Assembly (NCBI GenBank): GCA_963748625.1
Contig: CAVVJT010000007.1
Span: 640,001-704,000 of the forward strand
Reading direction: 5' to 3'
Length of the DNA: 64,000 nucleotides
Origin: an uncultured Chloroflexia bacterium
GTDB lineage: Bacteria; Chloroflexota; Limnocylindria; Limnocylindrales; CSP1-4
The stretch's first letter is position 1. Every line of letters starts with the position of its first letter. The notes under the pieces are model-generated. The model was not told where the DNA came from. It saw only the letters and a list, made by a program, of their open reading frames with translations, and did not search any database. This document shows positions 175-31,804 of this stretch, in pieces. A program made the position numbers and the translations under genes.

Positions 175-780
175 TCAGTTCTGGATCGCGGCCAGTGCGC
201 GATCCATGTCGGAGCGACTCATCGCGCCGATCCGGACCTCGCGGACCGTGCCGTCGGCACCGATGAAGAAGTGCGTGGGGATCCCCATCGTGCGGTAGCC
301 CGCAGCGATGTCCGCGTTCTCGTCCACCAGGATCGGGAACGTCAGCCCCGCGCGGGACGCGTACCCGGCGATCGCGTCGGCCGGCTCGTTCATGAACACG
401 CCGACCACATCCACCTTGTCCTTGTTCGCGAGATACGCGGCCTCCACGTCCGGCGCCTCATTGCGGCAGTCCGGGCACCACGAGGCGCCGAACGTCAGCC
501 ACACCGGCCGTCCGGACGACAAGTAGGTCGAGAAATCAACAGGCTCACCGTCGTAGGTCACCCCGCGGAAGGACGGCGGAACCGTCCCGATCTTGGGGGC
601 ATTCGCGGCGGCGGCGGAACCCAGGTCCACCTCCGTGACCCCATCGGAGGAGGATGCGCCGCCCCCGATGAGGAAGGCGGCCAGCCCGATGACGCCCACG
701 GTGATCGCGATCACCACGATCGTCTGCAGCCGTCCGGCCGAACGGCCAGCCGGCCGCTCCGCCACATCCGCTGCACTCAT
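175..780 (-). CDS. resA: Membrane-anchored TlpA/ResA-family thiol-disulfide oxidoreductase
   Basis: N-terminal TM; FGASWCPDCRNEAP active site, GIPTHFFIG cis-Pro motif; adjacent to ccsA/resB/ccdA. Confidence 0.85.
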   Translation of the reverse strand: MSAADVAERPAGRSAGRLQTIVVIAITVGVIGLAAFLIGGGASSSDGVTEVDLGSAAAANAPKIGTVPPSFRGVTYDGEPVDFSTYLSSGRPVWLTFGASWCPDCRNEAPDVEAAYLANKDKVDVVGVFMNEPADAIAGYASRAGLTFPILVDENADIAAGYRTMGIPTHFFIGADGTVREVRIGAMSRSDMDRALAAIQN

Positions 781-810
781 AGACGAACTCCCTTCACACC
801 AGACCCGGGC

Positions 811-1881
811 TCAGCCCAGGCCGGAGTAGCTGTGGAGCCCGCCGAAGAACAGGTTCCCGAAGTAGGTGAACAGCGTGGCCACGAAGCCCAGGACCAGCAG
901 CCAGGCGGCGCGATCGCCGCGCCAGCCGCGCATCACGCGGGCGTGGAGGTAGGCGCCGTAGATGAACCAGGTCACCAGCGACGCGGTCTCCTTGGGATCC
1001 CAGCTCCAGTAGGTGCCCCACGCGGTGTCGGCCCAGACGGCGCCCAGGATGATCGTCAGGGTCAGGAACGGGAAGCCGATGACCACGGCGCGGTACCCGA
1101 TCTCGTCGAGCACCTGCGGCTTGGGCAGGCCCCAGCGGCCGCCATCGGAGTCGGAGAGCGAGGCGCCAACCCCGGACCAGCGGGCGATCCCGCCGATGAG
1201 ACCACCGACGACCGCGCCAAGCAGGAGGCCCGCGAGGAGCCCGGTGACCTGGCCCATGATCAGGCGCCGACGATCGCGCCCGGGACCGCGCCGATCAGCA
1301 TGCCCGCGGCCACCATCACCCACCGGCCCTGGAGCAGGAACAGCAGCGAGGCGGCGAACGCGATGGCGAAGGAGCCGTAGGCAACGATCGCGACCGCGAC
1401 GTGGACGGTGAGGAGCAGGTTGTTCTGGAGGGCGGGGACGAGCGGCTCGACGGTCGGCCGGAATGGTTGCCGCGTACAGCAGCATCGCCAGCGCGACCGG
1501 CAGGGCGATCAGGGCGAGGATGCGCTGGTGGTACTTGTGCTCGAACCAGGAGTACGTGACCAGGATGCCGAAGGCGAACGCCATCGAGAACTCGTACATG
1601 TTCGCGAACGGCCCGTGGCCGGTCACAACGGCCCGGAACACCATGCTGGCGCCCAGGAGGGCGGTGGCCAGCCACACGAAGATGGACGCGTACCGTCCTA
1701 GCTCGCCGGTGCGCGGGCCGGACATGAAGCCCACGGTGCCGCCGGCGCCTGAGCCAGGACCGCCCGCCGTCTGCATCCGCGCAGCGCGGACGCCGGAGAC
1801 GGCGTAGAAGATGTAGAGGACGAGCGCGAACGCCGTCATCAGGATTGACGCGATGAACGCGTACTCGGACATCTTTGCCAT
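811..1881 (-). CDS. ccsA: System II cytochrome c synthase CcsA/ResC, with two compensating frameshifts near 1260-1460
   Basis: WWD domain [41 protein letters not shown]-terminal GLHSY; the [13 protein letters not shown] segment lies in another frame. Confidence 0.9.
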
Positions 1882-1894
1882 GGTGGGGACTCCC

Positions 1895-3337
1895 TCAGCC
1901 GTTCGCCGGCGTTCGCAGCGCCGTGCGGATGTCGTTGACGATGCTTTCGAACTCGGTGCCCTGCGCCACATCCTTCTGGGTGAGGGTGGCCAGGGCCAGG
2001 ACGGCGCCGCCGTTCGGACGGCTGGTGATGCGGCCCCACACGCGCTTGTGCGGGAACATGAAGCGGATGGCAAAGCCTCCGAAGAGGAGGAACGAGCCCA
2101 GCCACACGAGGGTGACACCCGGGTCGCGCGCGACACTGAGCCGGGTGTACTGGGTCTCACGGTCGAATGTCACGTCGAAGCCCGCAAGACTGGCGGCCTT
2201 GCCCTGGTCGATGACCTCCTGGGCGATCGGCGCGTTGTCCTGCCCGTGCTGCCAGACCTGCACCTCCACCTGCCCCGGCTTGATGCGCGGGTCGCTGGAG
2301 CCGGTGGTGCCCAGGACCCAGAGCGTCTTGTCCGAGTCCGGCACGGACCAGATGGCGAGCTGGCGGTCGTCGGCAGACAAGGACCACTCGTAGGGCAGGC
2401 CCTCGGAGATGAGGACGGCTCCGTCCTCGCCCTTGATCGTCATCGCCGCCGCCGAGCCGAAGCCGGACTGGTAGAAGGTCGTGTCCTTGTAGCGCAGCGG
2501 GTCGTTGACCCGGATGACGTGCTCATCGATCTTCTGGCCGTCCTTGTACAGGACGACGGTGCTGGCGTAGTCGATCGGCTGGCCCGTGGTGGTGTCGTAC
2601 GAGTCCATGAAGTCCAGGACCTCGAGCGCGAGGCCCGCCTCCGCGCCCACGGCCCGGGTGCTGCCCTCGGCCACGGCGAAGCCGCTGTCGCGGTAGCCCC
2701 AGGTGCCGCCGATGATCGCGCCTGCCAGGATCAGGATGATCGAGACATGGGCGATGAGGCCGGCGAACGAGAGCCAGCGGTGCTTGTCCGCGTAGACGTG
2801 GACCGTCCCGTCGTCGGCGTCGAGCACCCGGTAGCCGCGCTTCTTGAGGACGCCCTGTGCGGCGGCGGTCGTCTCGCTCGCGGACTGGCGGGACACGATC
2901 GCCTCGTGCTGGGGCGCATGCTCGAAGAACGCTGCCCCCACGTCCACGCGCGGCTTGGTGGCGGTCCGCCACATGCCGGGCGTGCGATGGACGGAGCAGG
3001 CGATCAGGCTGATCGTCAGGAACGCGACCAGGCCGCGGAAGATCAGCGAGTTGAAGATGTTGAATGCGTCGACCGCCGCGAGCGGGTCCGTCCAGCCCCC
3101 GAATGTCGGGCGGATGCCGTCAAGCCAGTCCGCGCGCGAGGCCGGGTCGGCCCACACGGTGGACGGCGCCTGGATCACGAGCGAGCCGATCACGCCAAGC
3201 ACGGCGATCGCAAGCATCACGACCATGGCCACGCGCATCGAGCTCAGGAAGTGCCAGAGGCCTTCCAGCACGCCGTCAACGCGGTCCATGGCTGAGGGAG
3301 ACGCGGTTGCGGGCCGCGTTTCGACCTTCTGGGTCAT
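1895..3337 (-). CDS. resB: Cytochrome c biogenesis protein ResB/Ccs1
   Basis: [44 protein letters not shown] and SVARDPG motifs. Confidence 0.9.
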
Positions 3338-4133: not shown

Positions 4134-5487
4134 TCAGGCTCCCACCGCGCGTGCGCCGGTCCTGGCGGGATTGACGTTCCCGGCCGGGCTGGCCGACGGG
4201 GCGGGGCTGGCCGAGGGCGCTGCCGACGGGGCCGCCGACGGGGCGCCGGAGGGCGCTGTCGACGGGGCAGCCGGAGCGCACAGGCATCATCGAGTTGCGT
4301 TGCCAGCGACTCCAGGTGGGACTTGGCCGTCTGGGCGAGGTCGGTCGTCGGGTCGATCTCGACGACCTGCTCCCACTCGCGCTGTGACGGCTGTCCAGTC
4401 CGGTTCGGCCTGGTTCAGGTAGAGGAACCCGAGGTCGTAGTGGACCTCCTGGTTGTCAGGGAACTTCGTCGGCGAACGCGGTCCACACCTTCTCGGCGTT
4501 CTCGACGTCACCAACGTTGAAGTAGACGGCGCCGCGCGCGAGGACGGCCCGCTCGTTGTCCGGCTCGATGGCGATGACCTTGTCCAGCCACGTGCCGGCC
4601 GTCTCGTACTCGCTCGACCGCGTAGTACTCGTTCGCGAGGGCGATGCAGCGTCTCCACGTCCTCGGGGTTCGCCTGGAGCTTGGTCATCAGCTCGGTGAT
4701 CCTCGCCGCGTCGACCGTCGGGGCGCTCGGCCTGCGCGGTGCGCCGTACCGGTGTTGCCCGAGGTGATCGGCGCTGCGGAGGACGAGCTGCCGAACAGGA
4801 AGTTGAAGCCCAGGAACCCGACCACCAGGACGCCGATGATGGAGAACGTGGCGATGTAGAGCCGCTTCCAGGGGTTCGTGGCGGTCGCAGCAGCCGGCGA
4901 CCGGCGCCGCCTTGGTGGCGGCTGGCCACCTTGCGCGCCTCGCGGCGATCCTTCTTGGTGGGCCGCTTGGCGTTGGGCGCCATGTCCGCGTGGGCGCTCG
5001 GCGTCACCGAGGCGTACAGCGCGGCCAGGTCCTCGGCGTCGGGCTCGCCCTCGATGGCGGCCGCGACGTCCTCGGGAGACTCGGCCTCGTCGGCCGGCTC
5101 CGCGACGCTCGTCAGCCTCGGTCGTCGGCGTCCACTGCAGCGGCATCCGCCACGGCAGCCGGGATCTCCTCGTCGAGGGAGATCCCGGCGGGCCGGAGGT
5201 GTCGCCGGCCCGCCGGGTACGACCACGGACGGACTCGTCGGGCTCCTGAGGGCCGAGCCCTCGAGACCGACCGGGTCGGTGAGTTTGAGGTACGCCGCGT
5301 CAAGCGCGGCGACCTGGGCGTGGGCCCATCCTCGCAGTTGCGGGGGTGCGGACGCGAGGTACTCGCTCGCGGCCTCGTGGAGGCGGTCCACGTCGTCGGG
5401 GGAAGCGCTGGCTGCCAGGCCGAGCTGGGCCAGCAGCTCGTTCTGGGCCTGCTCGGCCTCAGTGACCGGGACGCCGCGCGGGCTCAT
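4134..5487 (-). CDS. Membrane-anchored TPR protein (frameshifted), candidate apocytochrome chaperone
   Basis: Fragments give a helical N-terminal region, TM WKRLYIATFSIIGVLVVGFLGFNFLF, TPR-like LQANPEDVETL / VIAIEPDNERAVLARGAVYFN / PDNQEVHYDLGFLYL, and a Pro/Ser/Ala tail. Confidence 0.6.
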
Positions 5488-5743: not shown

Positions 5744-8083
5744 CTAGTAGCGGAACGCCTGGTGGTCCTTGCCGTGGCACATCATCGTGCAGGTGCCCAG
5801 CGCCGTTGGCGTCTTCACGATGAACTGGAACCCCAGGCCGGGCGAGTCCACGACGTTGGGCGCGAAGTTGACGAGCCGCGGGTTGTCCGCCTGCCCGCCG
5901 ATGGCCAGGCTGCTGCCATGGATCCGGAAGTGGCACTCGGCGCACAGGGCGTTGCCCTGGCCGGCGCCGGCGACGTCGATGTCCCGGCCCCCGGACCCGC
6001 TGCCCCGGATGCCCGACATGTGCAGTCCGTGGTACCGGAAGTTGGAGTCCGCGCGGTTGGTGCGGCTCGTGTCGGTCATGGGCGGCTCTGTGTGGCAGAG
6101 GTAGCACTCGGCGAAGTTGCCGACCGCGTAGAGCGTGCCCGATGCCGATAGGACCCGGTCCTCGTACTTGCGGAGCAGGATCCCGCGGTTGGCCGATGCG
6201 TGGTTGTCGATCGACGCGTCCGCCGTGACCGCTGCGACCGTCGATGAACCGTGGCAGTTCTGGCAGCGGATCGTGGAGGTCGTCGTGAACGTCCACAACT
6301 TGTACGGCGATGTCCCGGCCAGGTTCGTGTTCATCTTCACGGTCTGGTTGGTGCCCGCAGCCTCGACCGGGTGGAACGAGGCGTTGGACGGGTTGAACTC
6401 AAGTGCCTTGTCGAGCGCCCAGCGGCTCGGGTGCGCCGGGTCCTGGGCGCGAAGGTCCGTGAACGCGGAGTGGCACTTGAAGCAGAGCTCGTACTCCTTG
6501 GCCGAGGTGAGGTTCCAGGTGTACGCCGGTGCCGTGTTCGCGGCCCCGTTGACGACCGAGACGCCGGAGGCACCCTTGAGAGCGCCGCTTGCGGACCACG
6601 CCGTGGCCTTGCCGTCAGGGCCCGCCGGCCCCATCACGGGCAGGGTCGAGTCAGCCAGGTGTGGCTGGTGGCAGTCTGAGCACTCGCTGTGCCGGTTCTC
6701 CACGCCCTCGAACTCGTTGGTGCGGTCGGACACGTGGTCCGATGCGACGGTTGCCGGGTGGCGGAAGAAGCTCGACGTCGCCGGGTCGTTGGCCGGGAAC
6801 GCCGGGTTGGTGAACTCGGCCTTCGTATTGGCATCCGCACCCGACCCGTCGTGACAGCTGAAGCACATCGTGGAGATCGGCGAGAACGTCGCCTTCTGCA
6901 GCATCGCGCCTTCGGCGGTGTGGGTCCGATGGCAGGACGCGCAGGCATCGCTCTCGAGGGAGGCCTCCGCAAGGTGCGGTGAGGAGAACGATCCGGCGAG
7001 GGGCCCGAGGTCCAGCGGGGTGAGCTGTTCGGCGGCCGCGGCGTGCCGGGTTGCCATCAGCTGCTCCGGCTTGGCGAGCGGGAAGGCGGGCTCCTCCGAC
7101 GGGGCGCCCTCGACCTCCTCGGCAGAACGCTGCCCGGGGGTGATGACCTGCTCCGGCTGCGGCTCCATCGTCAGCTGCGCGTCGATGCGATCGGTGACGG
7201 CCGCCTCGCCCAGGCCAAGCCGGAGGTTGAACTCCGCCAGCCACGGTGCCGCATCAGTGGCGCGCACACGGAACTCGATGTCCGTGTAGGAGTCGGCGGG
7301 GAGCTGGAGGTGCGGGGCAGGGTTCTCACCCGCGCTGATGAGTCCCTTGACCGGGTTGCCTGGGGTTTCCCCCACCGTCGCCCGCAGGTCCGCAGGCAGG
7401 ATGTCAGTTGTCCGGACCTCATACTCGCGACCCTTGTCCGATGCTGCGTAGAAGGGCACATCGGGCACCGGATTGACCTCGGGTACCGCGTCCCAGGCGG
7501 GGGCATCGGCGGCAGCGCTCCACAGGAGCTTGGGAGTGACCTGCTCGTCCGTCGCGCCGTCGTTCACCACCCGGAACCGGACCCGGTACACGACCGAGAA
7601 GGTCATGCCGGCCAGCGGCTCGTCCTCAGCGCCAGCGACAGCGAGGGCGCCGAGGTCGGTCTCGGTGTCAACCCACACGTGCTCGATGCGGACGCCCTTC
7701 TCGGGCGCCGGCGTCGCGGACGGCTCGGGGAGCGGCGTGGAGGACGGATCGGGGGTCGGGTCCGTCGACGGGCCAGGGGTCGGCTCCGGTCCGACAACCG
7801 GACTCGCGCTCGGGTCGGGCAGGGCCGAGGGGTCGGGCACAGCCGAGGGGTCGGGCACGGGCGTCGTGCCGGGCTGCTCGGAGGCAGCCGGTGCGGGCGT
7901 GGCGCCCGGGTCGAAGAACGGCTGTGCGGCGGGGTCAACAGGCGTGGCAGTGGGCTGCGGTTCAGGCGTCGGATCCAGGGCCGACGCCACCGGGATCGCC
8001 GGGGAGACCGTCGCCAGCAGGCCAGCCAGAACCAGCCACGCTCCGAGGAGCGGGCCGGCACGGCGGGTGATTGCTGACTTCAT
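5744..8083 (-). CDS. Secreted or anchored octaheme c-type cytochrome with Pro-rich linker
   Basis: Signal peptide, PDPSA-type repeats, a beta-rich domain, then CASCH, CFSCH, CSDCH, CFKCH, CQNCH, CYLCH, CAECH and terminal CTMMCH. Confidence 0.9.
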   Translation of the reverse strand: MKSAITRRAGPLLGAWLVLAGLLATVSPAIPVASALDPTPEPQPTATPVDPAAQPFFDPGATPAPAASEQPGTTPVPDPSAVPDPSALPDPSASPVVGPEPTPGPSTDPTPDPSSTPLPEPSATPAPEKGVRIEHVWVDTETDLGALAVAGAEDEPLAGMTFSVVYRVRFRVVNDGATDEQVTPKLLWSAAADAPAWDAVPEVNPVPDVPFYAASDKGREYEVRTTDILPADLRATVGETPGNPVKGLISAGENPAPHLQLPADSYTDIEFRVRATDAAPWLAEFNLRLGLGEAAVTDRIDAQLTMEPQPEQVITPGQRSAEEVEGAPSEEPAFPLAKPEQLMATRHAAAAEQLTPLDLGPLAGSFSSPHLAEASLESDACASCHRTHTAEGAMLQKATFSPISTMCFSCHDGSGADANTKAEFTNPAFPANDPATSSFFRHPATVASDHVSDRTNEFEGVENRHSECSDCHQPHLADSTLPVMGPAGPDGKATAWSASGALKGASGVSVVNGAANTAPAYTWNLTSAKEYELCFKCHSAFTDLRAQDPAHPSRWALDKALEFNPSNASFHPVEAAGTNQTVKMNTNLAGTSPYKLWTFTTTSTIRCQNCHGSSTVAAVTADASIDNHASANRGILLRKYEDRVLSASGTLYAVGNFAECYLCHTEPPMTDTSRTNRADSNFRYHGLHMSGIRGSGSGGRDIDVAGAGQGNALCAECHFRIHGSSLAIGGQADNPRLVNFAPNVVDSPGLGFQFIVKTPTALGTCTMMCHGKDHQAFRY

Positions 8084-8131
8084 GAGGCGGGACGTCCTCT
8101 CGGTTGTGATTGGTGGGGTTGCGTGGATGAG

Positions 8132-9394
8132 TTACGGGTTCCTGAAGTTCCCGGTGTACGGGATGGTGTTCGTCGGGTCGTGGCAGGCCTGGCAGGTGCC
8201 ACGGTTGTCGATCTTGAGCAGGCGGCTGTTGAGGTACGTGGTGGTCGGGCCGGTGCCGACGGTCGTCGGTGCGGACCCGTCCGGGTAGTCCATCGCCCCC
8301 GAGTTGCCGATCATCGTGGCGTTGCTGCCGTGCGAGACGTGGCACTGGGTGCAGGCGACGGTCTGAGTGAGGTGACGGTACGTGTAGATGGAGTCGCCAC
8401 TCGGTGTCGTGATGTCGGACGACGTCGCGTGGTACCGGCTATGGCACGTGGAGCACCAGGCCTCGATCTCGACGTTGAAGGTGACGAGATTGTCCGGGGC
8501 GCCGACCACGTACATCGGGATGTCGCCCGGGACGCCGGTGCCAGCCTCGTCCTCGAAGCCGTTCCAGGTCGGTACGCCGTCCCAGGGCAGCCACTTGCGC
8601 CAGTAATCGCCGGCCGTGGGGCCGAGCGCGGCGGTGACCACGTCCTGGAGGGTACGACCGTTCTGGACGGTGTAGTTGCGCGTGCCTGCGGCGCCGCTCC
8701 CGCTCGGGAGCTCCGCGTCATTGACCGTCGCCCCCGGCTCGCCGACGCGCACGAAGTCAGCGCCGTCAGCCTCGGGGCGGGGGTTCAGGATCCGGTACTG
8801 GCCGTTGCCATGCGGGTTGTGGCACGTGCCGCAGCTGATCGTCGCGGTGGGTCCGGCGCCGCTGTCGATCGCGCCGTTGCCCCAGACAACATCGCGGGCC
8901 ACCACGCCACCGGCACCATCGACATCGAGGTGCGCGGACGTGACGGGGGCGCCATCGACGAGGGCAGGGACCAGCATGGAGAAGCTGGTGCGGAACTCGG
9001 TGGGGGCGAGGAACGGGTAGGAGATGCGCGAGGGGTTGGCGGAGTCGATGCGTGCATCCACAAAGCCGCCGGCCCGCAGAGCACCGGCGATCACTCCGGT
9101 GTCGCGTTCGCCGGTCGCGAGGCCGTATTGGATGCCGCTCTGGACATCAGTCGTGGCGCCTGTGCTTGACGCGCCGTGGCAGGTGAAGCAGAGCTCCTCC
9201 TCCGTCGCGGTCTTGAGCAGTTTCGCCCCTTGGGCGGTGTGCGTCCGATGGCAGCCGGCACAGCTGTCCGCAGTCAGCGACGAGAGGCCGTTGTTGCTGC
9301 CGGCAACGTGAGGGCCGCCGTCCGCAAGGACGGGGAACGCGGCGAGGAACAGCCACAGCGTGCCGGCTGCCATCAGCAGCGTCAGCTTCTTCAC
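8132..9394 (-). CDS. Hexaheme c-type cytochrome, OmcS-like (paralog B, intact)
   Basis: AGGAGG 8 nt before GTG 9394; signal peptide; CAGCH, CFTCH, CGTCH, CSTCH, CTQCH, CQACH in about 420 aa. Confidence 0.85.
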   Translation of the reverse strand: MKKLTLLMAAGTLWLFLAAFPVLADGGPHVAGSNNGLSSLTADSCAGCHRTHTAQGAKLLKTATEEELCFTCHGASSTGATTDVQSGIQYGLATGERDTGVIAGALRAGGFVDARIDSANPSRISYPFLAPTEFRTSFSMLVPALVDGAPVTSAHLDVDGAGGVVARDVVWGNGAIDSGAGPTATISCGTCHNPHGNGQYRILNPRPEADGADFVRVGEPGATVNDAELPSGSGAAGTRNYTVQNGRTLQDVVTAALGPTAGDYWRKWLPWDGVPTWNGFEDEAGTGVPGDIPMYVVGAPDNLVTFNVEIEAWCSTCHSRYHATSSDITTPSGDSIYTYRHLTQTVACTQCHVSHGSNATMIGNSGAMDYPDGSAPTTVGTGPTTTYLNSRLLKIDNRGTCQACHDPTNTIPYTGNFRNP

Positions 9395-9456
9395 TGTCCT
9401 CACCTCCTTTCCTTCGGGTTGGACGCAGGGGTTGGCGTGTGGTGTTGAGTCGGGGT

Positions 9457-9490
9457 GAGCCCGGTGGCGCCGGAGGCGACCACCGGGCTC
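9457..9490 (-). terminator. Strong intergenic stem-loop between the two hexaheme genes
   Basis: GAGCCCGGTGG...CCACCGGGCTC 11-bp stem with inner CGCC/GGCG; no U-tract. Confidence 0.55.
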
Positions 9491-9505
9491 TTCAGTATCG
9501 GGGTG

Positions 9506-11766
9506 TTACGGGGTCGCCGGCATGATGCCGACGGACCCGCCCGTGCCAGCCAGCGATGATGTCGACGTCGGCGCCGGAAGAGTCGTGGAGGTACCGTGAA
9601 GTCGTGGCTCAAGGATGCGACCTGACGATGACTGGCGGTTGGCGGTGCCAGTCGACTCTGGTGATACCAGCGATGTTGACCTGGTCGCCGACCGCGAGGC
9701 CGTGAGCACGCCGACGTGAAGTACGTCGGTGGTCGGCAGTCCACGCCGAGGCGAGTGCGACCTTCTGGAACGGAGCACGACCGGGAACTGGTCGCCAGCG
9801 ACCGTCGTGCCCGTGGGCTCGTGGCACTGCTGGCAGGTTCCGCGGTTGTCGATCTTCAGCAGCCGGCTGTTGCCGACCGCATCTGGTCCCATCCGGGAAG
9901 GTGAAGTTGGCGCTGTACTCGCCGGTCATCTGCGGCATTGGAGCCGTGCGAGACGTGGCAGGTGAGGCAGCCGCGACCGGAGCTCGCACCGCGAGTGCGG
10001 TGCTGGTACGAGAAGATCGCGTCGCCGGGGCGCGGGTTGCTGTAAGCCGGGCCGGTGGCGGTGCCGTCGGTCGGATCCTCGGTCGGCTCGGACCAGGCGT
10101 AGTAGCGGCTGTGGCACGAGGTGCACCACGCTGCCATCTGCTCGCCGAAGCCGCCGGTGAACTGCAGGCGGTGCCGCCGCCGGGGATGGCCGTTCGGTGC
10201 GTCGTAGGTTCGACGCGCCGCTGGGCCGTGTTCCACGGCACGCGGTAGTGGAAGTAGTCGCCGTCGGTCGGGTCGAACGCGGCCGCCTCGCAGGCGAGGA
10301 GGACGTCGTTCTGGCGACGGCTGCGCACCGCCGATGGCGTCGGTTGCGGAGGACACGCCGGCGAGCGTGAAGGTCGTCGTCGTTGCGGTGGCGACCTTGA
10401 CGGTGGTGTTCGAGCTGCACGGCGCTCGTGGAGCCACCAACGGTCATCCCGGTGACGTTGACCGTGTCACCGACCGCGAAACCGTGGGCGGCGGCGGTCG
10501 TGTAGACAAAGGTCGTTCCGACTGTAGCTGACCACGACGGCCCAGGACTTGGGTCCTGGATGACGGTGTAGTTGCGGGCATCGCGCAGCCGGCGAGGGCC
10601 GCAGCGTCGGTGACCCGAACGCCACCGTTGCGGATCGACCTTGCCACCGAGACGGTGGTGCCATCGGTGACGCCGGTAATCGTGAAGGTCAGGTCGGACG
10701 GAACGGTGGCAACCGCGCCCGTGACGTTGGCCGCACCCAGCGCGTTGCCGCGTGACGGTGACGTTGTCGCCGATCAGCAGGCCGTGGCTGGCCACAGTCG
10801 TGTAGACCTTGTTGGAGTAGCTGAGCGAGGGCGACGCCCTGCGGCAGCACGGTGCCGCCGGTGCCGGTGCCGGCAGCCAGCTTGAAGGAGACGACCGGAG
10901 TGACCCGCCGGCAGGCTCGTCTTGGCGGTGAACTCGGTCGTGGGAGACGATCGTGTCGATCCACAGCGTCCGGTTGGCGGCCGTGGTGGAGTTACCGGCT
11001 ACCACGATCTGGTTGTTGACCGCCAGATCGTGGTTGGCGCCGGTGGTGAACAGCGCTGCGGCGTTGGCGGTAGCGGTGCCATAACCGATCACGCTGGTGA
11101 GCGCGGTCGTCGGGTACTGGCCGCCACCCCACGTGGCGTCAATGCCAGTAGCGCCGGGGATGGTGTTCAGGATGCGGTACTGCCCGTTCCCGTGCGGGTT
11201 GTGGCAGGAGCCGCAGGAGACGTCGGCAGCCGGGCCGGCACCGGAGCCGTTGGCCCCGTTGCCCCAGGCGATGCCGGGCTGCGTCAGGCCGGCAAGGCCG
11301 GGCATGTGCGCAGAGGTGACCGCCTCGAGACGGTGCGAGACGGTGACCTTGCCGTAGCGCGAGCTGTTGCCCGTCGCGCTGGTCTGGAGTGAGAACGGAA
11401 GGGATCGCCGATGCGGGCCTCTTCGAAGCCGCCGCCGCGGAGGGCGCCCAGGTCGGCCGTGCCGCTGCGCGGTTCTTCAGCGATCGTCGGAGGGCTCGTA
11501 CTGGACGCCCATGACGACGTCCGTGGTTGCGCCCGTCAGGCCGCACCGTGGCACGCGAGGCACAGGTCCTCTTCCGTGGTCTGGTTCAGCAGCAAGGGGC
11601 CCTTGGCGGTATGGACCCGGTGGCAGCCGGCGCAACTATCGGCCGTCAGCGACGTGACGCCGTTGTTGATCGACGACGTGTGGGGTCCACCATCCGCGAA
11701 CGCAGGAACCGCGGCAAGGAACAGCCAAAGTGTGCCGGCTGCGATCAGCAGCGTCAGCTTCTTCAC
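9506..11766 (-). CDS. Hexaheme c-type cytochrome, OmcS-like (paralog A) with four inserted beta-modules; multiple frameshifts
   Basis: ORF fragments reassemble as CAGCH, CLACH, CGSCH, CTSCH, CLTCH, CQQCH, colinear with paralog B (shared DGGPH, CHNPHGNGQYRILN, CHVSHGSNA, NSRLLKIDNRGTCQ). Confidence 0.8.
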
Positions 11767-11879
11767 TGTCCAAGCCTCCTTTCTGTAACTAACTACGTGC
11801 GTGTTGATTGACGTGGGCCGCCAATGGGGCGGCGGCTAGTTGGTCGGAAACACCTCCTGCTACTCCCTCTCATCTACCT

Positions 11880-12946
11880 CTAGTAGCTCCACAACTGGAC
11901 GCGGTCGTTGCCGGTGTCGGCCACATAGACCCTCCCTCTCGCATCGACAGCGACCCCGTTGGGGTATTGGAACGTCCCGTTGTCGGCGCCCCTGGCCCCC
12001 GAAGGAGCCAAGGAATTTGAGCTCCACGGGACCCGACGTCGAGATCTCGTAGACGAACACCCCGTGACCGGTGGAGTCGCCGACGTAGACGCGGTTCTGG
12101 CCGTCGATGGCGACGCCACGCGGGAGGCCGAGGTTGCCCTCACCCGACCCGCGGCCGATGCTCGCCACAACGCTGTTGTCGGCCCCGAACACCAGCAGGC
12201 GGCCGTTGCTGCTGTCCGCGACGACGACGTTGCCGTTGGCATCGACGGCGACGCCGTTCGGAAAGTTGAGGCCCTCGGTCTCGCCCATCGTGCGCAGGAC
12301 GGCGCCGCTGCGGTCGAAGACGACCACGCGCTGCGCCGGGCCGCCGACGTCGGTCACGTACAGGTTGCCGGTCTTGTCGAACGCGAGGGCCAGCGGCTGC
12401 CAGCCCTAGAATCGTCCTCGCCAGGGTCGAATGTCCGGGCGTAGGTGCCGTTGGCGTCGTACACGTGGATGGCGCCCGCCGGACGGTCTGTCACGTAGAC
12501 CTCGCCAGCCAGCGGATCGACGGCTAGGTACACCGGCACGTGGTCCACATCCGGGTTGGGCGCTGCCATGACGGCGAGCTCGTTGCCGCTGGCGTCGAAC
12601 ACGCGCGCGATCCGGTCACCGCCTGTCTCGCCGACGTAGATGCGGCTGCCGTCCGCCGTGACCGCGACGCCGACGGGGTGCATTCGCGCCGTACATGGAC
12701 GTCACGTAGCCAGGCATGACGACCTGGCCGGGGAGTGTCGGCAGCGGGCACGGGCTGGCGGAAAAGCAGGTACCAGATGGCGAGTCCGAGCAGCATGGCG
12801 AGGGCTGCCAGCAGGACGAGCAGGAGCACGACCTTGCGGCGGCGGGACTTGCCTTCGCCGGTGCCATCGAGGGGCTGGCTGTCGGTGCCCTCGGGGGCCT
12901 CAGCCCCTTCGGGGATGGCGGTGGGGACGGCGGGGGACGCAGTCAT
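11880..12946 (-). CDS. Membrane-anchored NHL-repeat beta-propeller protein (frameshifted)
   Basis: TM after RRRK; repeats PVGVAVTADG.RIYV, FPNGVAVDANGNVVVADSSN, LPRGVAIDGQNRVYVGDS, YPNGVAVDARGRVYVADTGNDRVQ; TGATG overlap with the upstream gene. Confidence 0.85.
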
Positions 12947-13943
12947 CAGTTGGATCCTTCGCTCGGGGACGCGGCCGGGGAGGCCGAGGGCTTGACCGGG
13001 ACGGTGACCCGGCTCAGGCCGAACTTGGCGGTGTCGTCCTCGGGATCGATGGCGAGCGCCTTGCGGTACCAGTCGGCGGCGGCGGCGGTGTCGCCGGTCG
13101 TCTCGGCGATCAGGCCCAGGCCGACGAACGCCTCGATGGCATGCTCGCCGCCGGTGATTGCCTTGAGCCGCTGCTCCGCGGTGGGGATGTCGCCGCTGTT
13201 GAACGCGGCCATGGCGCCTGCCCACTCGGCGAGCTCGGCATCTCCGGTCGCCTTGTAGGCGGTCTCCGAGGAGCGCGTACGGCTCAGCCCAGCCGGCCGG
13301 CACCAGTGCGATCGCCTTACGCAGGATCTCGACGGCCTCGGGGGCGCGATCCGTCGCAAGGTATGCCTTCGCAATCGCATACATCGCATCAGCGTTGGTG
13401 CGCTCGATCTCGAGGGCCCGCCCAAGCTGGTCGATAGCCTCGTCGTTGTTTCCCTGGGCCAGGGCGATCTCACCGCGGCCGAAGTAGGCGGCCGCAAGCG
13501 TGCGGTCCACGTTCGCCATCTCACCGCCTGCAGCGAACTCGACCACGGCGTCGTAGTCCTTGATCGCGTCGTCGTACCGCTCCATCGCCTGGTAGACGCG
13601 GGCGCGGCCCAAGGCTCGCGAGCTCGACCTCCTGGTCGGCATCGATCAGCAGCGTGTACTGGACGATGGCGTCCTCGTAGCGGCCCTTGGCGGCGTACGT
13701 GTCGGCGAGCAGGCCGCGGGCGGCGATGTTCTCAGGCTCTGCGCGGACCTTCTCCTCCATCGCGACGAGCTGCTGGTCAACGATCTCAGCAGTCGGCATG
13801 CGGAAGCGGTCGATGACGTAGAACGCCACGAAGGCGATGAGGACAACAACAAAGAGGAGCGCGATCCGCTTGATCCAGCGGTTCAGCTGCTCCTCAGGCA
13901 TGTTGGTCAGGGACGTGACCCGGGACATGAATGGCACCTTCAC
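12946..13943 (-). CDS. Membrane-anchored multi-TPR protein (two frameshifts)
   Basis: N-terminal TM, then TPRs such as ARGLLADTYAAKGRYEDAI, AYFGRGEIALAQGNNDEAI, AFVGLGLIAE...WYRKALAIDP. Confidence 0.8.
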
Positions 13944-26402: not shown

Positions 26403-27449
26403 TCAGCCCTCCCGGCGCGACCCCTTCGGCAGCAGCTGCACGAACTCGAAGCCGAAGCGGCCCTTCACGCACAGGTTGCCCTCGGTCACGTACGAGTCCG
26501 TCGGCGAGAGCACCTTCACGATCCTGCCGTCCTGCGCATGCAGCGACAGCGTGCACCCAACGCCGCAGTACGGGCAGATCGTGTTCGTCACGGTCTGCAC
26601 CGACTCGTCCCAGGTCCCCGCCTCGCGCATGTCGTACTCGGACTTGAACATCAGCGCCCCGGTGGGGCAGACGTTGATGCAGTTCCCGCACCAGACGCAC
26701 GCCGACTGGTCGAGCGGGACGGCGTACTCGGTGGAGACGCGCGCATCGAACCCGCGACCTGCGATCGAGATCGCGAAGGTGTTCTGGGCATCGGCGCCGC
26801 ACGCCTCGACGCACTTGTAGCAGAGGATGCACTTGGCGTAGTCGCGGACGAAGAGGTCGTTGTCGATCTTGACCGGCTGGGCCACGTTGGACGCGGTGGC
26901 CCCGGAGGGATCGTGGTGGTGGCCGGCATGGATGGCATCGCGCTCGCCGGCGGCCGCGGGCGGCGACGGCGGCCCGAACCGGGTCAGGTCGGCGCCGTAG
27001 CGCTCCACGTACTCCGCGAACTTGCCGTCAGGCAGCACGGAACCAGCGAGGCTGACATCCACGGACGAGCCCAGCAGCTCCAGCACGAGCTTGCGCGAGA
27101 GGCGGACCTTCTCGCTGTCCGTCTCGACCGACATGCCCTGGGAGACCTTGGCCGAGCAGGACGGGGTGAGCGCGCGGGCGCCCGTGTCCACCACGCACAT
27201 CCGGCACACGCCCTCGGGCGTGAGCGTGGACAGCTGGCAGAGCGTGGGGATGTCCTTGCCCTGCGCCAGGCAGGCGTCGAGGATCGTCGCGTCGGCGGGA
27301 GCCGTCACCGGCACCCCGTCGATGGTGATCTCCACCATCCGCGGCGCCTTGCGCTCGGGGCGCGCAGGAATGGACGGCGAACGTGCCGGCGACGTTGTGA
27401 AGATGATCGGGTCGACGCCCGTGTAGATGGGCTTGGGGGCGTGGCTCAC
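26403..27449 (-). CDS. Formate dehydrogenase Fe-S subunit (2Fe-2S, 2x4Fe-4S, molybdopterin-proximal 4Fe-4S)
   Basis: PTLC...CRMC...PSC; CILCYKCVEAC; CVWCGNCINVCP; TICPYCGVGC...LCVKGRFG. Confidence 0.9.
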   Translation of the reverse strand: MSHAPKPIYTGVDPIIFTTSPARSPSIPARPERKAPRMVEITIDGVPVTAPADATILDACLAQGKDIPTLCQLSTLTPEGVCRMCVVDTGARALTPSCSAKVSQGMSVETDSEKVRLSRKLVLELLGSSVDVSLAGSVLPDGKFAEYVERYGADLTRFGPPSPPAAAGERDAIHAGHHHDPSGATASNVAQPVKIDNDLFVRDYAKCILCYKCVEACGADAQNTFAISIAGRGFDARVSTEYAVPLDQSACVWCGNCINVCPTGALMFKSEYDMREAGTWDESVQTVTNTICPYCGVGCTLSLHAQDGRIVKVLSPTDSYVTEGNLCVKGRFGFEFVQLLPKGSRREG

Positions 27450-29359
27450 GATCCAACCTCCGCGAGCCGGATGCCCGTCCGCAGCGCGTCATTGGCGGTC
27501 TGGCCGAGACCGCAGATCGAGGCGTCGCGCAGGACCTGGCCGAGGTCCTCGAGCAGGGCGAGCTCATCCTCCACGCTGCCCCGTGGTTGCCTCGCCGCCA
27601 GCCGGGCGAGCAGCTCCTCCTGGCGGACGGTGCCCACGCGACAGGGCACGCACTGGCCGCAGGACTCGTCGCGGAAGAACTGGGCGATGCGGCGCAGGAT
27701 GTCGAGCATGTCGGTGGTCTCGTCGAACACGACGACGGCGCCCGCGCCGATCGTCACGCCCAGCTCCTTGGCGGCCTCGAAGGTGAGCGGCATGTGGAGC
27801 GACTCCGGCCCGACGAAGGCGCCCGCGGCCCCGCCGAGGTTGACGGCCTTGACCTTGCGGCCACCGGGCACGCCGCCCGCCATGTCGATCAGGTCACGCA
27901 GGGTGATGCCGAACTCGGCCTCGTAGACGCCCGGCCGGTTGACGTGGCCGGAAACCGAGAACAGCTTGTGGCCGTTCGACCCGTGGGACCCGAGCGCCGC
28001 GTAGACATCGCCGCCCTCGAGGACGATCCCCGGGATGTTGGCCAGCGTCTCGACGTTGTTGAGCACGGTGGGCTTCTGGAAGAGGCCGGCGGTGGTCGAA
28101 CGGGCCGCCTTGTTGCGCGGCTCGCCGCGCTTGCCCTCGATGCTCTCGTAGATCGCGGTGCCCTCACCGCAGACGTAGGCGCCGCCGCCGCGGCGGATCT
28201 CGATGTCGAAGGCGAAGCCCGCGCCCATCACGTCGCCGCCGAGCAGGCCCTTCTCACGGGCGGTGTCGATGGCGCCCTGGAGGCGCTCCTCGGCGAGGGG
28301 ATACTCGCCGCGCAGGTAGACGAAGCCCAGCTCCGCCCCCACAGCGAAGCCCCCGATGGTCATCGACTCGACCAGGCTGAACGGGTCCTCCTCCAGGATG
28401 ATCCGGTCCTTGAAGGTGCCCGGCTCCGCCTCGTCGGCGTTGCACACGATGTTCTTGGGCCAGGCCTGGGTGGCGCGCGCGGCGGCCCACTTCTTGCCCG
28501 CGGGGAACGCGGCGCCGCCACGTCCGAGGACCTCGGCCGTGATGACCTCCTCGATCACCCGGTCTGGACCCACCGCGATCGCCTCCTTGAGGGCGCGGTA
28601 GCCGCCGTTGGCGAGATAGTCGGTGAGGCTGGTGGGATCGATCCGGCCGACACGGGCCAGGAGGCGCAGGTCGGGATCGCCGGCCTGGGGCGCGAACTGG
28701 CGCACCGCCTCAAGCCGCTCCGCCGTGGGGGCGGTCTCGAGGCCGTGGACGTGGCCCTCGGGGTGGGGATGCTCGGCGTCCTCGAGGCGGCGGTGGATGG
28801 CCGCGGCGTCAAGAGGCCCCGTGGAAAGGCGCACGCACGGGTCGCCCGCAAACGTGAACAGCGCGGCAGGGGCGCGGTCGCACTGGCCCAGGCAGGGGCT
28901 GCGCATCCAGGATGCCGTGGCGCCGGGCTTGGGATGGCCGGCAGGCCCGAGGGTCCGCTCCAGGTCTGCCGCGATCTCCTCGGCACCGGCAAGGCGGCAG
29001 GCCATGTCGTCGCAGACATGAACGACGGAGGCCGGCATGGGCGTCATCGTGAACAGGGCGTAGAACGTGGCCACGCCGTACGCGTCGGCCGGCGGGATCG
29101 TCAGGCGCTTGCAGGCGTAGTTGAGGGCGGACTGGCTGATCCAGCCGAGCCGGTCCTGCATCGCGTGCAGGGTGGGCAGCAGCAGGTCGCGGTGGCTGCG
29201 CGCGTCGTGGCCGCCCCTTGCCATGCGCGAGTCCTTGGCGACGTCACGCTCTCCGCCATCCCAGCCGCTGGTCGCCGGGCCGATCCGGCCATCGAGGAAG
29301 GAGTCGACCGCGGCCCGCTCTTCGGCAGTTGCGGCGGGTCCGACGAAATGCAGATCCAT
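27446..29359 (-). CDS. NuoE-NuoF fusion diaphorase subunit of NAD-linked formate dehydrogenase
   Basis: CDDMAC...CLGQC; GRGGAAFPAGKKW, CNADEAEPGTFKDR, GAYVCGEG, ESCGQCVPCRVG...SICGLG. Confidence 0.9.
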   Translation of the reverse strand: MDLHFVGPAATAEERAAVDSFLDGRIGPATSGWDGGERDVAKDSRMARGGHDARSHRDLLLPTLHAMQDRLGWISQSALNYACKRLTIPPADAYGVATFYALFTMTPMPASVVHVCDDMACRLAGAEEIAADLERTLGPAGHPKPGATASWMRSPCLGQCDRAPAALFTFAGDPCVRLSTGPLDAAAIHRRLEDAEHPHPEGHVHGLETAPTAERLEAVRQFAPQAGDPDLRLLARVGRIDPTSLTDYLANGGYRALKEAIAVGPDRVIEEVITAEVLGRGGAAFPAGKKWAAARATQAWPKNIVCNADEAEPGTFKDRIILEEDPFSLVESMTIGGFAVGAELGFVYLRGEYPLAEERLQGAIDTAREKGLLGGDVMGAGFAFDIEIRRGGGAYVCGEGTAIYESIEGKRGEPRNKAARSTTAGLFQKPTVLNNVETLANIPGIVLEGGDVYAALGSHGSNGHKLFSVSGHVNRPGVYEAEFGITLRDLIDMAGGVPGGRKVKAVNLGGAAGAFVGPESLHMPLTFEAAKELGVTIGAGAVVVFDETTDMLDILRRIAQFFRDESCGQCVPCRVGTVRQEELLARLAARQPRGSVEDELALLEDLGQVLRDASICGLGQTANDALRTGIRLAEVGS

Positions 29360-29474
29360 AGGCAGCCGAGTGTAAACAATCGACGGCAGGCCGCAACAGG
29401 TATCTCGGCCCGGTCAGAAGGGGCATGATCGTCCGTGATTCCACCTGCGTCCGCCCTGCCGTGAGGCCCCAGCC

Positions 29475-30216
29475 ATGTCCCTGCGCCACCACGAGATCGC
29501 CGAGGCCCGCCACCGGATCCTCGACCCGTTCACGCACGAGAAGCTTCGGCTGCTGGGCGAGGTCTGCTGGCGTTGGACCGGGCACCCGGATCCTCGACCT
29601 GGCCTGCGGCAAGGGCGAGATGCTGTCGTCCTGGGCGACGTGGTTCGGCAGCAGCGGCGTCGGGGTCGACTTGTCGCACGTGTTCCTGGCAGCGGCGGTC
29701 GAGCGGGCATCGGAGCTGGGGGTGTCGGCGCGGGTGTCCTTCGTGCAGGGCGACGCTGGCGTGTATTCGGCTGAAGCGGGCGCGTTCGACATCGCGTCGT
29801 GCCTGGGGGCGACCTGGATCGGTGGCGGGCTCGGCGGGACGCTGGACCTGCTGCGGCCCGCGGTGCGGGAGGGCGGGCTGGTCGTTGTCGGGGAGCCGTT
29901 CTTCCACGAGGAGCCGCCGGCCGAGGCGATCTCGGCGTGGGGCTTCGGGCCGGACGACTACACGTCGCTGGCGGGGACGGCTGCGCGGATTCGCGACGCC
30001 GGCTTCGAGCTGGTCGAGATGGTGCTGGCGGACCAGGATTCGTGGGATCGGTATGAGGCCGCACACTGGCCGACGATCCTGGACTGGCTGGCGGCCAACC
30101 CGTCCGACCCGGACTGGGGCGCGATGCGCGAGATGCTGGACCGGGATCGCGCGACGTACCTGCGCTGGGGCCGGCGGTACCTCGGCTGGGGCGTGTTCGT
30201 CTGCCGGCCGGTCTAG
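29475..30216 (+). CDS. Class I SAM-dependent methyltransferase (YjhP-like), frameshift near 29570
   Basis: HRILDPFTHEKL then ILDLACGKGEML, CLGATWIGGG, DSWDRYEA, RYLGWGVF. Confidence 0.8.
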
Positions 30217-30230
30217 GGTCCGCCGCAGGC

Positions 30231-30959
30231 TCAGAACTCGCCGCACTCCCAGGTGAGGGTGCCTGACCAGCCGTTCGGCCAAGGATCCATCGCGCCGTCG
30301 ACCGGGCCGAACTCGGCCGTGCCCGAGAGGCCGTCGTCGGCAAGGTCCACGGTGACGGGTCCCTGCCAGAAGGGCTGCCCGACGCCCTTGGAGGCGCCGT
30401 CATCGTCGAAGAGGTCGCCGCCGTCGATGAGCAGCTCGAGCGTCCAGTCGGCCGTCGTGTCCATCCGCTGCACGCCGCCGCGGAGGGTGCCCTCGATGCC
30501 GCCGGCCCAGATCGTGCCAAGGTCCATGCCGAAGGCCGCGCCCAGCTCCCGGGTATCGGGAACGGAGTCGCACGTCGCCCCACCGGAGCCCCCTTCCCCG
30601 GCATCGCCGAGGCCCGCGGGCTCGAGCGACATGGTGCCCTCGCTGCGGATGGTCACCGGTTCGTGGTACCCGAGGCTGAGCACGGGGACCAGGACGAACG
30701 CCACCGCCGCGGTCGCCGCTGCGACACCGGTCCCGCGCAGGAGCGCCCTCCCTGCCGCCTGCGTCTTCGTCCAGCGCGCCAGGGCCCACGCGATCAGCGC
30801 GATGATGCCGAGGAGCGCGGCGGCCATGAGCACCAGGATCGGCGCCCCGAGGGAGGCGAAGCCGCCCACGGTCAGTGGATAGGCGCAGTACCAGCCGATC
30901 AGGTAGCCAACGATGACCCCCGGGATCGCGGGCCACCAGCGCTTGGCGGTGCCTCTCAC
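30231..30959 (-). CDS. Hypothetical membrane protein
   Basis: Three TM segments plus acidic/Gly-rich C-terminal domain. Confidence 0.55.
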   Translation of the reverse strand: MRGTAKRWWPAIPGVIVGYLIGWYCAYPLTVGGFASLGAPILVLMAAALLGIIALIAWALARWTKTQAAGRALLRGTGVAAATAAVAFVLVPVLSLGYHEPVTIRSEGTMSLEPAGLGDAGEGGSGGATCDSVPDTRELGAAFGMDLGTIWAGGIEGTLRGGVQRMDTTADWTLELLIDGGDLFDDDGASKGVGQPFWQGPVTVDLADDGLSGTAEFGPVDGAMDPWPNGWSGTLTWECGEF

Positions 30960-31035
30960 GTTCCATCTCCACGCTTCGGTGGGACGCGCGGTGCCGTCAA
31001 GTCTAGTCGCCTCGCATTGTGCTACCCTGTGCTAC

Positions 31036-31339
31036 ATGAGTGAGGCGGGAGCGCGGCCGGCGCGGGTCGGGGTCCGGGAGCTGCGGCAGAACCTGTCCGT
31101 GTACCTGGACCGCGTGAAGGCCGGTGAGACCCTGGAGGTGACCGAGCACGGGCACCCCGTCGGGCATCCTTGCGCCACTCCCGGTGAAGCCGATGTCGAT
31201 CGTGGACCGGGGCATCGCCGAGGGCTGGATCACACCCGCAACCACGGACCATCGCAGCACGCCGCCGCCACCCAAGATCCCCGGGCGCCCCCTCAGCGAG
31301 ATCCTCCAGGAGATGCGGGACGAGGAGCGCATGCTGTGA
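31036..31339 (+). CDS. Phd/YefM-family antitoxin (frameshift near 31165)
   Basis: VGVRELRQNLSVYLDRVKAGETLEVTEHGHPV; true C-terminus LSEILQEMRDEERML in another frame; TGTGCTAC direct repeat just upstream. Confidence 0.8.
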
Positions 31340-31725
31340 GTCTGGCCTACCTGGATGCCTCGGCGCTGGTCAGGCTGATCGTGGACGAAGCCGAGTCGGC
31401 GGGTCTCAACCGCTGGTACGTGGAGGCGGAGCGCCTGATGACCAGTCGTGTCGGGGTCATCGAGACGATCAGGGCCACGGGCCGGCGCACATTCGACAAG
31501 CGCCAGCGGGACCGGATCCTCTCGGATGTCGAGGTCATGGAGCTCGGACCGGCGATCGCGGCGTCGGCCGCCGTCGTCGGCTCGCCGCTCCTGCGGACGC
31601 TCGATGCGATCCACCTCGCCTCGGCGATGGCGCTGATGCCGGAGCTAGACGCCTTCGTCACGTACGACGACCGCCTCGCCGAGGCCGCGCGGAGCCTGGG
31701 GCTGCCGGTGGTGCGGCCGGCCTGA
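31336..31725 (+). CDS. vapC: VapC PIN-domain toxin
   Basis: YLDASALVRL...EAES, LRTLDAIHLASA, FVTYDDRLAEAA; GTGA overlap with the antitoxin. Confidence 0.9.
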   Translation: MSLAYLDASALVRLIVDEAESAGLNRWYVEAERLMTSRVGVIETIRATGRRTFDKRQRDRILSDVEVMELGPAIAASAAVVGSPLLRTLDAIHLASAMALMPELDAFVTYDDRLAEAARSLGLPVVRPA

Positions 31726-31753
31726 CCGGGGCACGGAGGCGCACCTGGAACGG

Positions 31754-31783
31754 CGAAGGCGGACCCTCGCGGATCCGCCTTCG
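31754..31783. terminator. Hairpin between convergent vapC and fdhF
   Basis: CGAAGGCGGA-N10-TCCGCCTTCG. Confidence 0.65.
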
Positions 31784-31804
31784 AGTTTCGTGCGTGGGCG
31801 AACG

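Follow-up and report, generated by a model that had tools for sequence, protein, structure and literature searches.

A predicted secreted hexaheme cytochrome of uncultured Chloroflexota as a distant relative of OmcS within a conserved envelope gene cluster

The gene described here lies on the minus strand at 8132..9403 of a 64,000-nucleotide stretch of DNA (the window) from an uncultured Chloroflexia bacterium, and its product, P0001, is predicted to be a Sec-exported hexaheme c-type cytochrome, in which all-bis-histidine ligation is predicted from six invariant histidines. By its profile alignments and structural model, P0001 is truly, if distantly, related to OmcS, the filament-forming cytochrome of Geobacter sulfurreducens; the heme-binding core is common to the two proteins and about half of the chain is not. 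Its gene neighbourhood is a conserved cluster for electron transfer in the cell envelope, found in uncultured Chloroflexota (Limnocylindrales) and in Actinomycetota; both phyla are usually regarded as single-membraned. One of the six histidines, H55, takes the position of the residue that joins neighbouring subunits in OmcS, and by analogy an inter-subunit role for it is plausible.

The gene is a real open reading frame of 423 codons when counted from the GTG at 9403, and residue numbering throughout follows this form. An AAGGAG box touches GTG 9403 and is placed 9 bases upstream of a second GTG at 9394. Because the box abuts 9403, GTG 9394 is the likelier start and would give a product of 420 residues, which is also the database call (P0002) and agrees with the end coordinate of the initial annotation of this DNA. 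Following the putative signal peptide, the mature protein starts with DGGPH, and this start is near-invariant among relatives, with D28 and G29 kept in at least 90% of them and G30, P31 and H32 invariant. The six CxxCH motifs have their first cysteines at C48, C72, C191, C317, C351 and C404 and their proximal histidines at H52, H76, H195, H321, H355 and H408, and a secreted protein of about 400 residues with six such motifs matches OmcS-type cytochromes in size and motif count. The sequence scored 67 bits against Paired_CXXCH_1 (PF09699; cut-off 20.6, E 1.2e-18) and 53.8 bits against TIGR01905 (cut-off 25.2).

Conservation of the candidate distal ligands was followed in an alignment of 128 full-length six-heme relatives, with identities down to about 35%, and in a smaller alignment of 51. 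H158, H198 and H358 are kept in all 128 sequences and H32, H55 and H344 in 127, and the same six non-motif histidines are invariant in 51 of 51. A seventh non-motif histidine of P0001, H325 in an RYH context, is kept in only four of the 51, so that the count of exactly six shared non-motif histidines, which the initial annotation had taken from the gene and its paralog, holds across the family. That annotation had also pointed to a histidine three residues past the first CxxCH, in both paralogs; this residue, H55, is found in 127 of 128 relatives, and the second paralog does have it, along with all six histidines and all six motifs. The strings quoted from the window (CAGCHRTH, CFTCH, CGTCHNPH, CSTCH, CTQCHVSH and CQACH) were all recovered at the expected codons. 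In the single relative that lacks a histidine at the H55 position, P0165, the histidine corresponding to H344 sits two residues earlier, probably as a result of misalignment. The motifs and histidines can be read as three di-heme modules, each arranged as His ... CxxCHxxH ... CxxCH, namely H32/C48-H55/C72, H158/C191-H198/C317 and H344/C351-H358/C404, and the histidine three residues past the motif (+3 His) is found on hemes 1, 3 and 5 in both P0001 and OmcS.

Two profiles of relatives, A1 with 51 members and the broader A2 with 44, were searched against the PDB. With A1, OmcS (6ef8_A) was the top match at an E-value of 0.007, and with A2 it came second at 0.0018, in one collinear stretch from the heme-3 to the heme-4 motif. 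The order of motif contexts is common to both proteins and reads CxxCHxxH, CxxCH, CxxCHxPHG.YR, WCxxCH, CxxCHxxHxS and R..CxxCH; the local contexts match in the alignments from both profiles, and the earlier claim that the hexaheme retains the OmcS motif order is borne out. The OmcS contexts found in the alignments are CEGCHTMH (residues 9-16), CLNCH (47-51), CSSCHDPHG with KYRR (140-152), EWCANCH (237-243), VNCLSCHRAHAS (326-337) and RALCNKCH (397-404), and GPMLL is also present. These are the strings that the initial annotation had quoted for OmcS, with two exceptions: the quoted YRIL reads KYRR in OmcS, and LRH is seen in no alignment. H55 aligns with OmcS residue 16 and H198 with residue 147, and H358 corresponds to residue 335. 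The trans ligand in OmcS is reportedly His16, as attributed to Wang et al. (2019); the papers searched for this residue number did not give it.

Two structural models of P0001 were compared with known folds. The first (AlphaFold), computed from 51 sequences with the signal peptide included, was mediocre, with a predicted local distance difference test (pLDDT) score of 75.2, and the second, of the mature protein with 128 sequences, was good (pLDDT 88.3, predicted TM-score (pTM) 0.89). Comparison of model 2 with 6ef8_A by VIA gave a Z-score of 9.1 and a root-mean-square deviation of 3.8 Å, with 207 of 407 residues aligned at 23% identity; the match to the OmcS fold runs from end to end (model residues 3..384 on chain residues 1..407), with about half of the residues outside the alignment. 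Only two of 48,161 representative chains reached a Z-score of 2 or more in the search with model 2, OmcS at 9.1 and the decaheme cytochrome MtrA at 5.0, and no OmcE-type chain was among them. Model 1 gave Z-scores of 8.0 for OmcS and 5.4 for MtrA, again by VIA and independently of Foldseek. The first three ten-residue blocks of model 2 have pLDDT values of 41, 51 and 67, compared with the mean of 88; the N-terminal arm (mature residues 1-14, including H32) lies below 50, and the model is at its least confident in this arm and in the heme-1 motif. A beta-rich region is modelled between hemes 2 and 3, with strands within mature residues 64-126.

Table 1. Features of the hexaheme gene and of the surrounding cluster in the window. 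Locus counts refer to L001 proteins searched by tblastn.
Feature	Coordinates	Strand	Evidence and remarks
Hexaheme c-type cytochrome gene (P0001), predicted	8132..9403	-	Open reading frame, homologs, Pfam Paired_CXXCH_1 1.2e-18
Putative Sec-type signal peptide, residues 1-27, cleaved after VLA	9323..9403	-	Sequence reading
H32, N-terminal arm, candidate distal ligand	9308..9310	-	127/128; sole miss N-terminally truncated
Heme-1 motif CAGCHRTH; H55 three residues past proximal H52	9239..9262	-	Aligns with OmcS chain residues 9-16
Heme-2 motif CFTCH	9176..9190	-	Aligns with OmcS residues 47-51
H158 (TSAH), distal-His candidate	8930..8932	-	128/128
Heme-3 motif CGTCHNPH; H198 three residues past proximal His	8810..8833	-	Aligns with OmcS residues 140-147
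Heme-4 motif (W)CSTCH	8441..8455	-	Aligns with OmcS 238-243, in one stretch also covering heme 3
H344 (YRH), distal-His candidate	8372..8374	-	127/128
Heme-5 motif CTQCHVSH; H358 three residues past proximal His	8330..8353	-	OmcS counterpart 328-335
Heme-6 motif CQACH	8180..8194	-	OmcS counterpart 400-404
Second, longer hexaheme paralog with inserted domains	9506..11790	-	At least 5 frame pieces; intact 654-residue counterpart L001:8309-10273
NHL-repeat beta-propeller, N-terminal membrane anchor	11860..12946	-	Three frames; L001 counterpart Pfam NHL 7.8e-28; 70/75 loci
Membrane-anchored TPR protein	13006..13943	-	Three frames; 67/75 loci
Octaheme cytochrome, 779 residues, 7 CxxCH and 1 CxxxCH	5744..8083	-	Intact; 72/75 loci
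TPR-cupredoxin fusion	4301..5463	-	At least 4 frame pieces; 63/75 loci
ResB (System II cytochrome c maturation)	1904-3337	-	Intact; 56/75 loci
CcsA (System II cytochrome c maturation)	814-2105	-	At least 3 frames; 53/75 loci
Thioredoxin	175-810	-	Cluster gene

The cluster around the hexaheme was followed through 74 related loci and the window, 75 in all, with the proteins of an intact locus (L001) as queries; several of the loci without a match are short contigs. In L001 the genes are ordered as GAF histidine kinase, TPR protein, NHL protein, long hexaheme (654 residues, with small beta-barrel inserts), short hexaheme, octaheme, TPR-cupredoxin, ResB, CcsA and thioredoxin. Most of the loci come from metagenome-assembled genomes (MAGs) of Chloroflexota, Chloroflexia or Limnocylindrales, together with eight from Solirubrobacterales or Solirubrobacteraceae, two from other Actinomycetota and one from Anaerolineaceae. 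The octaheme carries an N-terminal anchor and a linker of about 100 residues rich in Pro, Thr and Asp. Its hemes open with a copy of the first module of the hexaheme, reading SPH, 13 residues, CASCHRTH and CFSCH, with both the preceding His and the +3 His in place; because of this copied module, the octaheme could cap or anchor a heme chain.

In the window, CcsA, the TPR-cupredoxin, the long hexaheme, the NHL and the TPR genes are split across two to five frames, and the frames of ResB, the octaheme and the short hexaheme are intact. These breaks are probably indels of a long-read assembly and not decay into pseudogenes, since they also affect the maturation gene CcsA and since other assemblies carry intact counterparts. 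The source assembly comprises 4.63 Mb in 10 contigs, and all five Paired_CXXCH_1 matches in this genome fall in the cluster. A third hexaheme paralog, in three frame pieces, was seen at C7:632525-633462 (minus strand), about 7 kb before the window. A second ResB is encoded outside the cluster at C7:845253-846566 (minus strand), and the cluster therefore appears to own a dedicated cytochrome c maturation set.

Sequencing runs covered 0.06-0.07 of the stretch. From two DNA runs, three 151-base contigs fall inside the short gene with 0-1 differences. An RNA library (metatranscriptome) gave 436 contig pieces, 90-99% alike, which are spread over the two hexaheme genes (8100-11900) and occupy 28 of 30 bins, and no piece, DNA or RNA, extends across the frame breaks of the long paralog; since most pieces are 90-95% alike, they are taken to derive mostly from relatives. 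This hints that the hexaheme family is transcribed somewhere, with carry-over of DNA as a possible source of such pieces. Elsewhere in the window, an NAD-linked formate dehydrogenase-like set is found at 26403-33463 (minus strand), comprising a 2Fe-2S/4Fe-4S/Molybdop_Fe4S4 protein, a flavoprotein resembling Nuo51 and a molybdopterin subunit; other reading frames lie between the molybdopterin part and its Fe4S4 domain.

All twelve axial heme ligands of OmcS are histidines; a subunit provides eleven of those on its own hemes, and the remaining one, a ligand of heme 5, belongs to its neighbour (PMC6584659, PMC7096707 and PMC9473688). By analogy, P0001 may act as a segment of a wire outside the membrane, with head-to-tail assembly through a trans-His as the most likely mode; we put this forward tentatively, as a proposal that falls a little short of an even chance. 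In OmcS, the +3 His of heme 1 would reach back to heme 5 of the adjoining subunit; counted along the continuous chain, this is heme n-2. Applied to each module of P0001, the same n-2 rule would have H198 serve heme 1 and H358 serve heme 3, leaving H32, H158 and H344 for hemes 2, 4 and 6. If the rule is general, H55 would be left without a heme in its own chain and heme 5 without a distal His of its own, so that the N-terminal module would be needed to complete a heme 5 elsewhere, either in the next subunit or in another partner. The membrane-anchored octaheme, having the same first module, could plug the open heme-5 end and anchor the wire, and a helping role in assembly would fall to the NHL propeller and the TPR proteins. 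Three observations fit the n-2 reading: OmcE, another trans-His filament, has a +3 His on heme 1 and begins with His ... CxxCHxxH (7tfs_A); the monomeric MtrA has no +3 His on its first heme motif; and the N-terminus of P0001 is near-invariant among relatives and uncertainly modelled at the same time.

A number of observations weigh against assembly of this kind. The n-2 rule is inferred from the single known case of OmcS and not from coordinates, and the proposal as a whole is built on homology and layout. For the kinship itself, the profile E-values are marginal and carried largely by the heme motifs. MtrA (2.7e-4) came ahead of OmcS with profile A2, and a search of the PDB with the single sequence found only the decaheme MtrA chain 6r2q_A (E 0.008) and missed OmcS. 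In the PDB table 6r2q_A is oddly labelled; it comes from an entry for the Mtr complex. From one first cysteine to the next, the spacings of 24/119/126/34/53 differ from the 38/93/99/89/72 of OmcS, and only about half of the residues align. Foldseek searches of the PDB ranked OmcS first for model 1 with a non-significant score (E 0.48, TM-score 0.21), and for model 2 they gave nothing significant, with OmcS absent among the 50 best matches. Within the first module, 16 residues separate the +3 His from the next Cys, as in the paired motif of MtrA, and the MtrA chain is not known to polymerise. Poorly modelled N-termini are common in general. P0165 (389 residues) is the sole relative of the 128 without a histidine at the H55 position, M364 is kept in 117 of 128 and is a possible alternative ligand, and a trans ligand, if any exists, could be H32 in place of H55.

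The alternative that survives best is a self-contained monomer, in which the six histidines would close all hemes in cis and H55 would be placed on a neighbouring heme of its own chain, as in ordinary paired-CXXCH modules; within the wall zone it would carry electrons, by shuttling or relay, among the anchored octaheme, the cupredoxin protein and external substrates, and no filaments would form. We regard it as a reasonable possibility, if not a probable one. The strong Paired_CXXCH_1 match, the likeness of the first module to MtrA in sequence and spacing and the fact that the monomer is modelled confidently as it stands all agree with it. Six histidines for six hemes require no partner, and the count, which is right family-wide, fits cis and trans ligation equally. 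It cannot separate a closed monomer from a polymer because each OmcS subunit also supplies six distal histidines, and the argument from number with which the initial annotation closed is weakened for this reason; its observation is confirmed and its interpretation partly supported. According to PMC12977616, of the G. sulfurreducens relatives of OmcS only OmcS is known as a wire, which calls for caution in inferring filaments from homology. What a monomer leaves unexplained is why the +3 His of the first heme and the mature N-terminus are near-invariant if nothing precedes them in the chain. It also sits poorly with the N-terminal arm and heme-1 motif being the least confidently placed in the monomer model, and with a best fold match that is a filament subunit.

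A finite hetero-complex is unlikely. One of the cytochromes, be it the short hexaheme, the long hexaheme or the octaheme, would use its N-terminal module to complete heme 5 of a different one, giving a defined chain that leads from membrane anchor through the wall. The octaheme, which shares this first module, is co-encoded with two or three paralogs of the hexaheme type. Short hexaheme and octaheme occur together in 72 of 75 loci, and the long paralogs vary in their inserted domains yet keep six hemes; however, about half of the loci match the long paralog only partially, maybe through no more than the conserved N-terminus of the short gene. A redox enzyme, in which heme 5 or another heme stays five-coordinate and catalytic (for metal or nitrogen-oxide chemistry, for example) and is fed by the other hemes, is very improbable: a terminal OmcS subunit would carry a five-coordinate and possibly catalytic heme, according to PMC7096707, and a cupredoxin protein is co-encoded, but all six distal-His candidates are invariant and P0001 has no NrfA-, HAO- or MccA-type family match above cut-off.

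Returning to head-to-tail assembly, the separate strands could be joined in one reading, in which Limnocylindria-type Chloroflexota and Solirubrobacterales, abundant as uncultured bacteria of soil and freshwater, would build His-cross-linked hexaheme wires. A modular rule, by which the +3 His on every odd heme closes the one two places earlier, would drive polymerisation by leaving the His of the first module and heme 5 open by design, with the octaheme plugging the heme-5 end and rooting the wire in the cell, and the NHL and TPR proteins and the private ResB/CcsA assembling it. As a whole this combined reading is doubtful.

The family is large. P0001 has 1106 homologs at E≤0.001 among 8000 candidates scored, a scan of 1.84 billion cluster representatives (50% identity) found 1946 at E≤0.001, 996 at E≤1e-10 and 393 at E≤1e-30, and relatives are present in 209 stretches of the species-genome collection. 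An Atlas cluster commonest in Bacillota scored 0.92, which we note only as a lead toward CwcA-like proteins. Exactly six CxxCH motifs are found in 234 of 268 collected proteins, almost all of them relatives. Long forms retain six hemes, with extra domains inserted in the loops between hemes 3 and 4 and hemes 4 and 5; the inserts of the long paralogs (L001:8309-10273; P0125-P0264) measure 100-350 residues and gave weak matches to End_beta_barrel (3.5e-4) and E1_FCCH (9.1e-4), both below cut-off. No natural tandem (12-heme) fusion was found among the 268 proteins. Those longer than 500 residues all have six hemes except P0166 (five), P0181 and P0191 (four each) and P0258 (14), and the last, of 776 residues, is a compact hexaheme unit fused to eight further hemes.

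Cytochrome nanowire structures so far come from a few Desulfuromonadia and from archaea. Polymerisation of the present family, if it occurs, would bring wires of the OmcS type to lineages of Chloroflexota and Actinomycetota that are mostly uncultured soil and freshwater MAGs, and such wires, if real, would offer a concrete and testable route for electron export or uptake across a thick cell wall. The invariant H55 and H32 together with the three-module layout point to precise mutants. Even without polymerisation, the conserved cluster is a respiratory module that has gone unstudied and that brings its own genes for cytochrome maturation. Among the titles and abstract openings surveyed, we found no account of OmcS-like genes in Limnocylindria or Solirubrobacterales, and OmcS is unmentioned in the available passages of bioRxiv 10.1101/2021.08.23.457424.

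Set beside known systems, P0001 most resembles OmcS (6EF8/6NEF), which is likewise secreted, of about 400 residues and equipped with six CxxCH motifs in the same context order, with the +3 His on hemes 1, 3 and 5. The two have about 23% identity over 207 residues and differ most plainly in the gap between hemes 4 and 5, which is 89 in OmcS and 34 in P0001; the beta-rich region modelled between hemes 2 and 3 is a further difference. OmcS is a filament subunit, filament formation by P0001 is a proposal, and the hosts are Geobacter for the former and Chloroflexota and Actinomycetota for the latter. Beside omcS, too, there is a beta-propeller gene (GSU2505/OscD). The osc companion genes are said, in work attributed to Shen et al. 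(2025), to encode a prolyl-isomerase chaperone, channel proteins and a beta-propeller, and a propeller-like OscD and an NHL gene adjoining omcS are reportedly described there. An NHL propeller adjoins the hexaheme in 70 of 75 loci, and neither an outer-membrane channel nor an isomerase gene was found among the annotated genes of the cluster.

MtrA/DmsE-type cytochromes (6r2q_A) have repeated Paired_CXXCH_1 modules with the same spacing as P0001 and gave the second fold match (Z 5.0), but they carry ten hemes and their first motif is without the +3 His. P0001 scored 43 bits against the DmsE/MtrA family TIGR03508, for which the cut-off is 192.2, and with six hemes in place of ten it falls outside that family. 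MtrA sits inside an outer-membrane porin. OmcE-type cytochromes (7tfs_A; 9yuq_N) have an N-terminal module of the form His ... CxxCHxxH ... CxxCH, as in P0001, but with four hemes in place of six, and only the first module aligns (E 0.016 and 0.011 with profile A2). In OmcE-type filaments a His of one subunit ligates the heme of the adjacent subunit, according to PMC9473688, and in bioRxiv 10.1101/2025.10.22.684050 a gene for a beta-propeller lipoprotein is described as a hallmark of the nanowire clusters of OmcE; a beta-propeller gene is thus common to these clusters and to that of P0001.

A further known system is CwcA (Tfer_0075) of Thermincola ferriacetica, a cell-wall cytochrome which like P0001 is a six-heme OmcS-related protein, and whose host is Gram-positive (PMC7911101); P0001 is best described as a divergent member of this OmcS/CwcA kind. 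The Thermincola cluster partners are ImdcA, PdcA and OcwA, in place of the TPR, NHL, octaheme, TPR-cupredoxin and ResBC partners of P0001. In PMC7911101 CwcA is proposed to form a wall-spanning stacked wire in which heme 5 is closed by a His of the next subunit, on the grounds of a homology model at 18% identity and of insolubility on expression. The idea of a trans-His wire for a Gram-positive OmcS homologue is therefore already in print. The present analysis adds a family-wide test of the six histidines, the reading of the protein as three di-heme modules and a better fold match.

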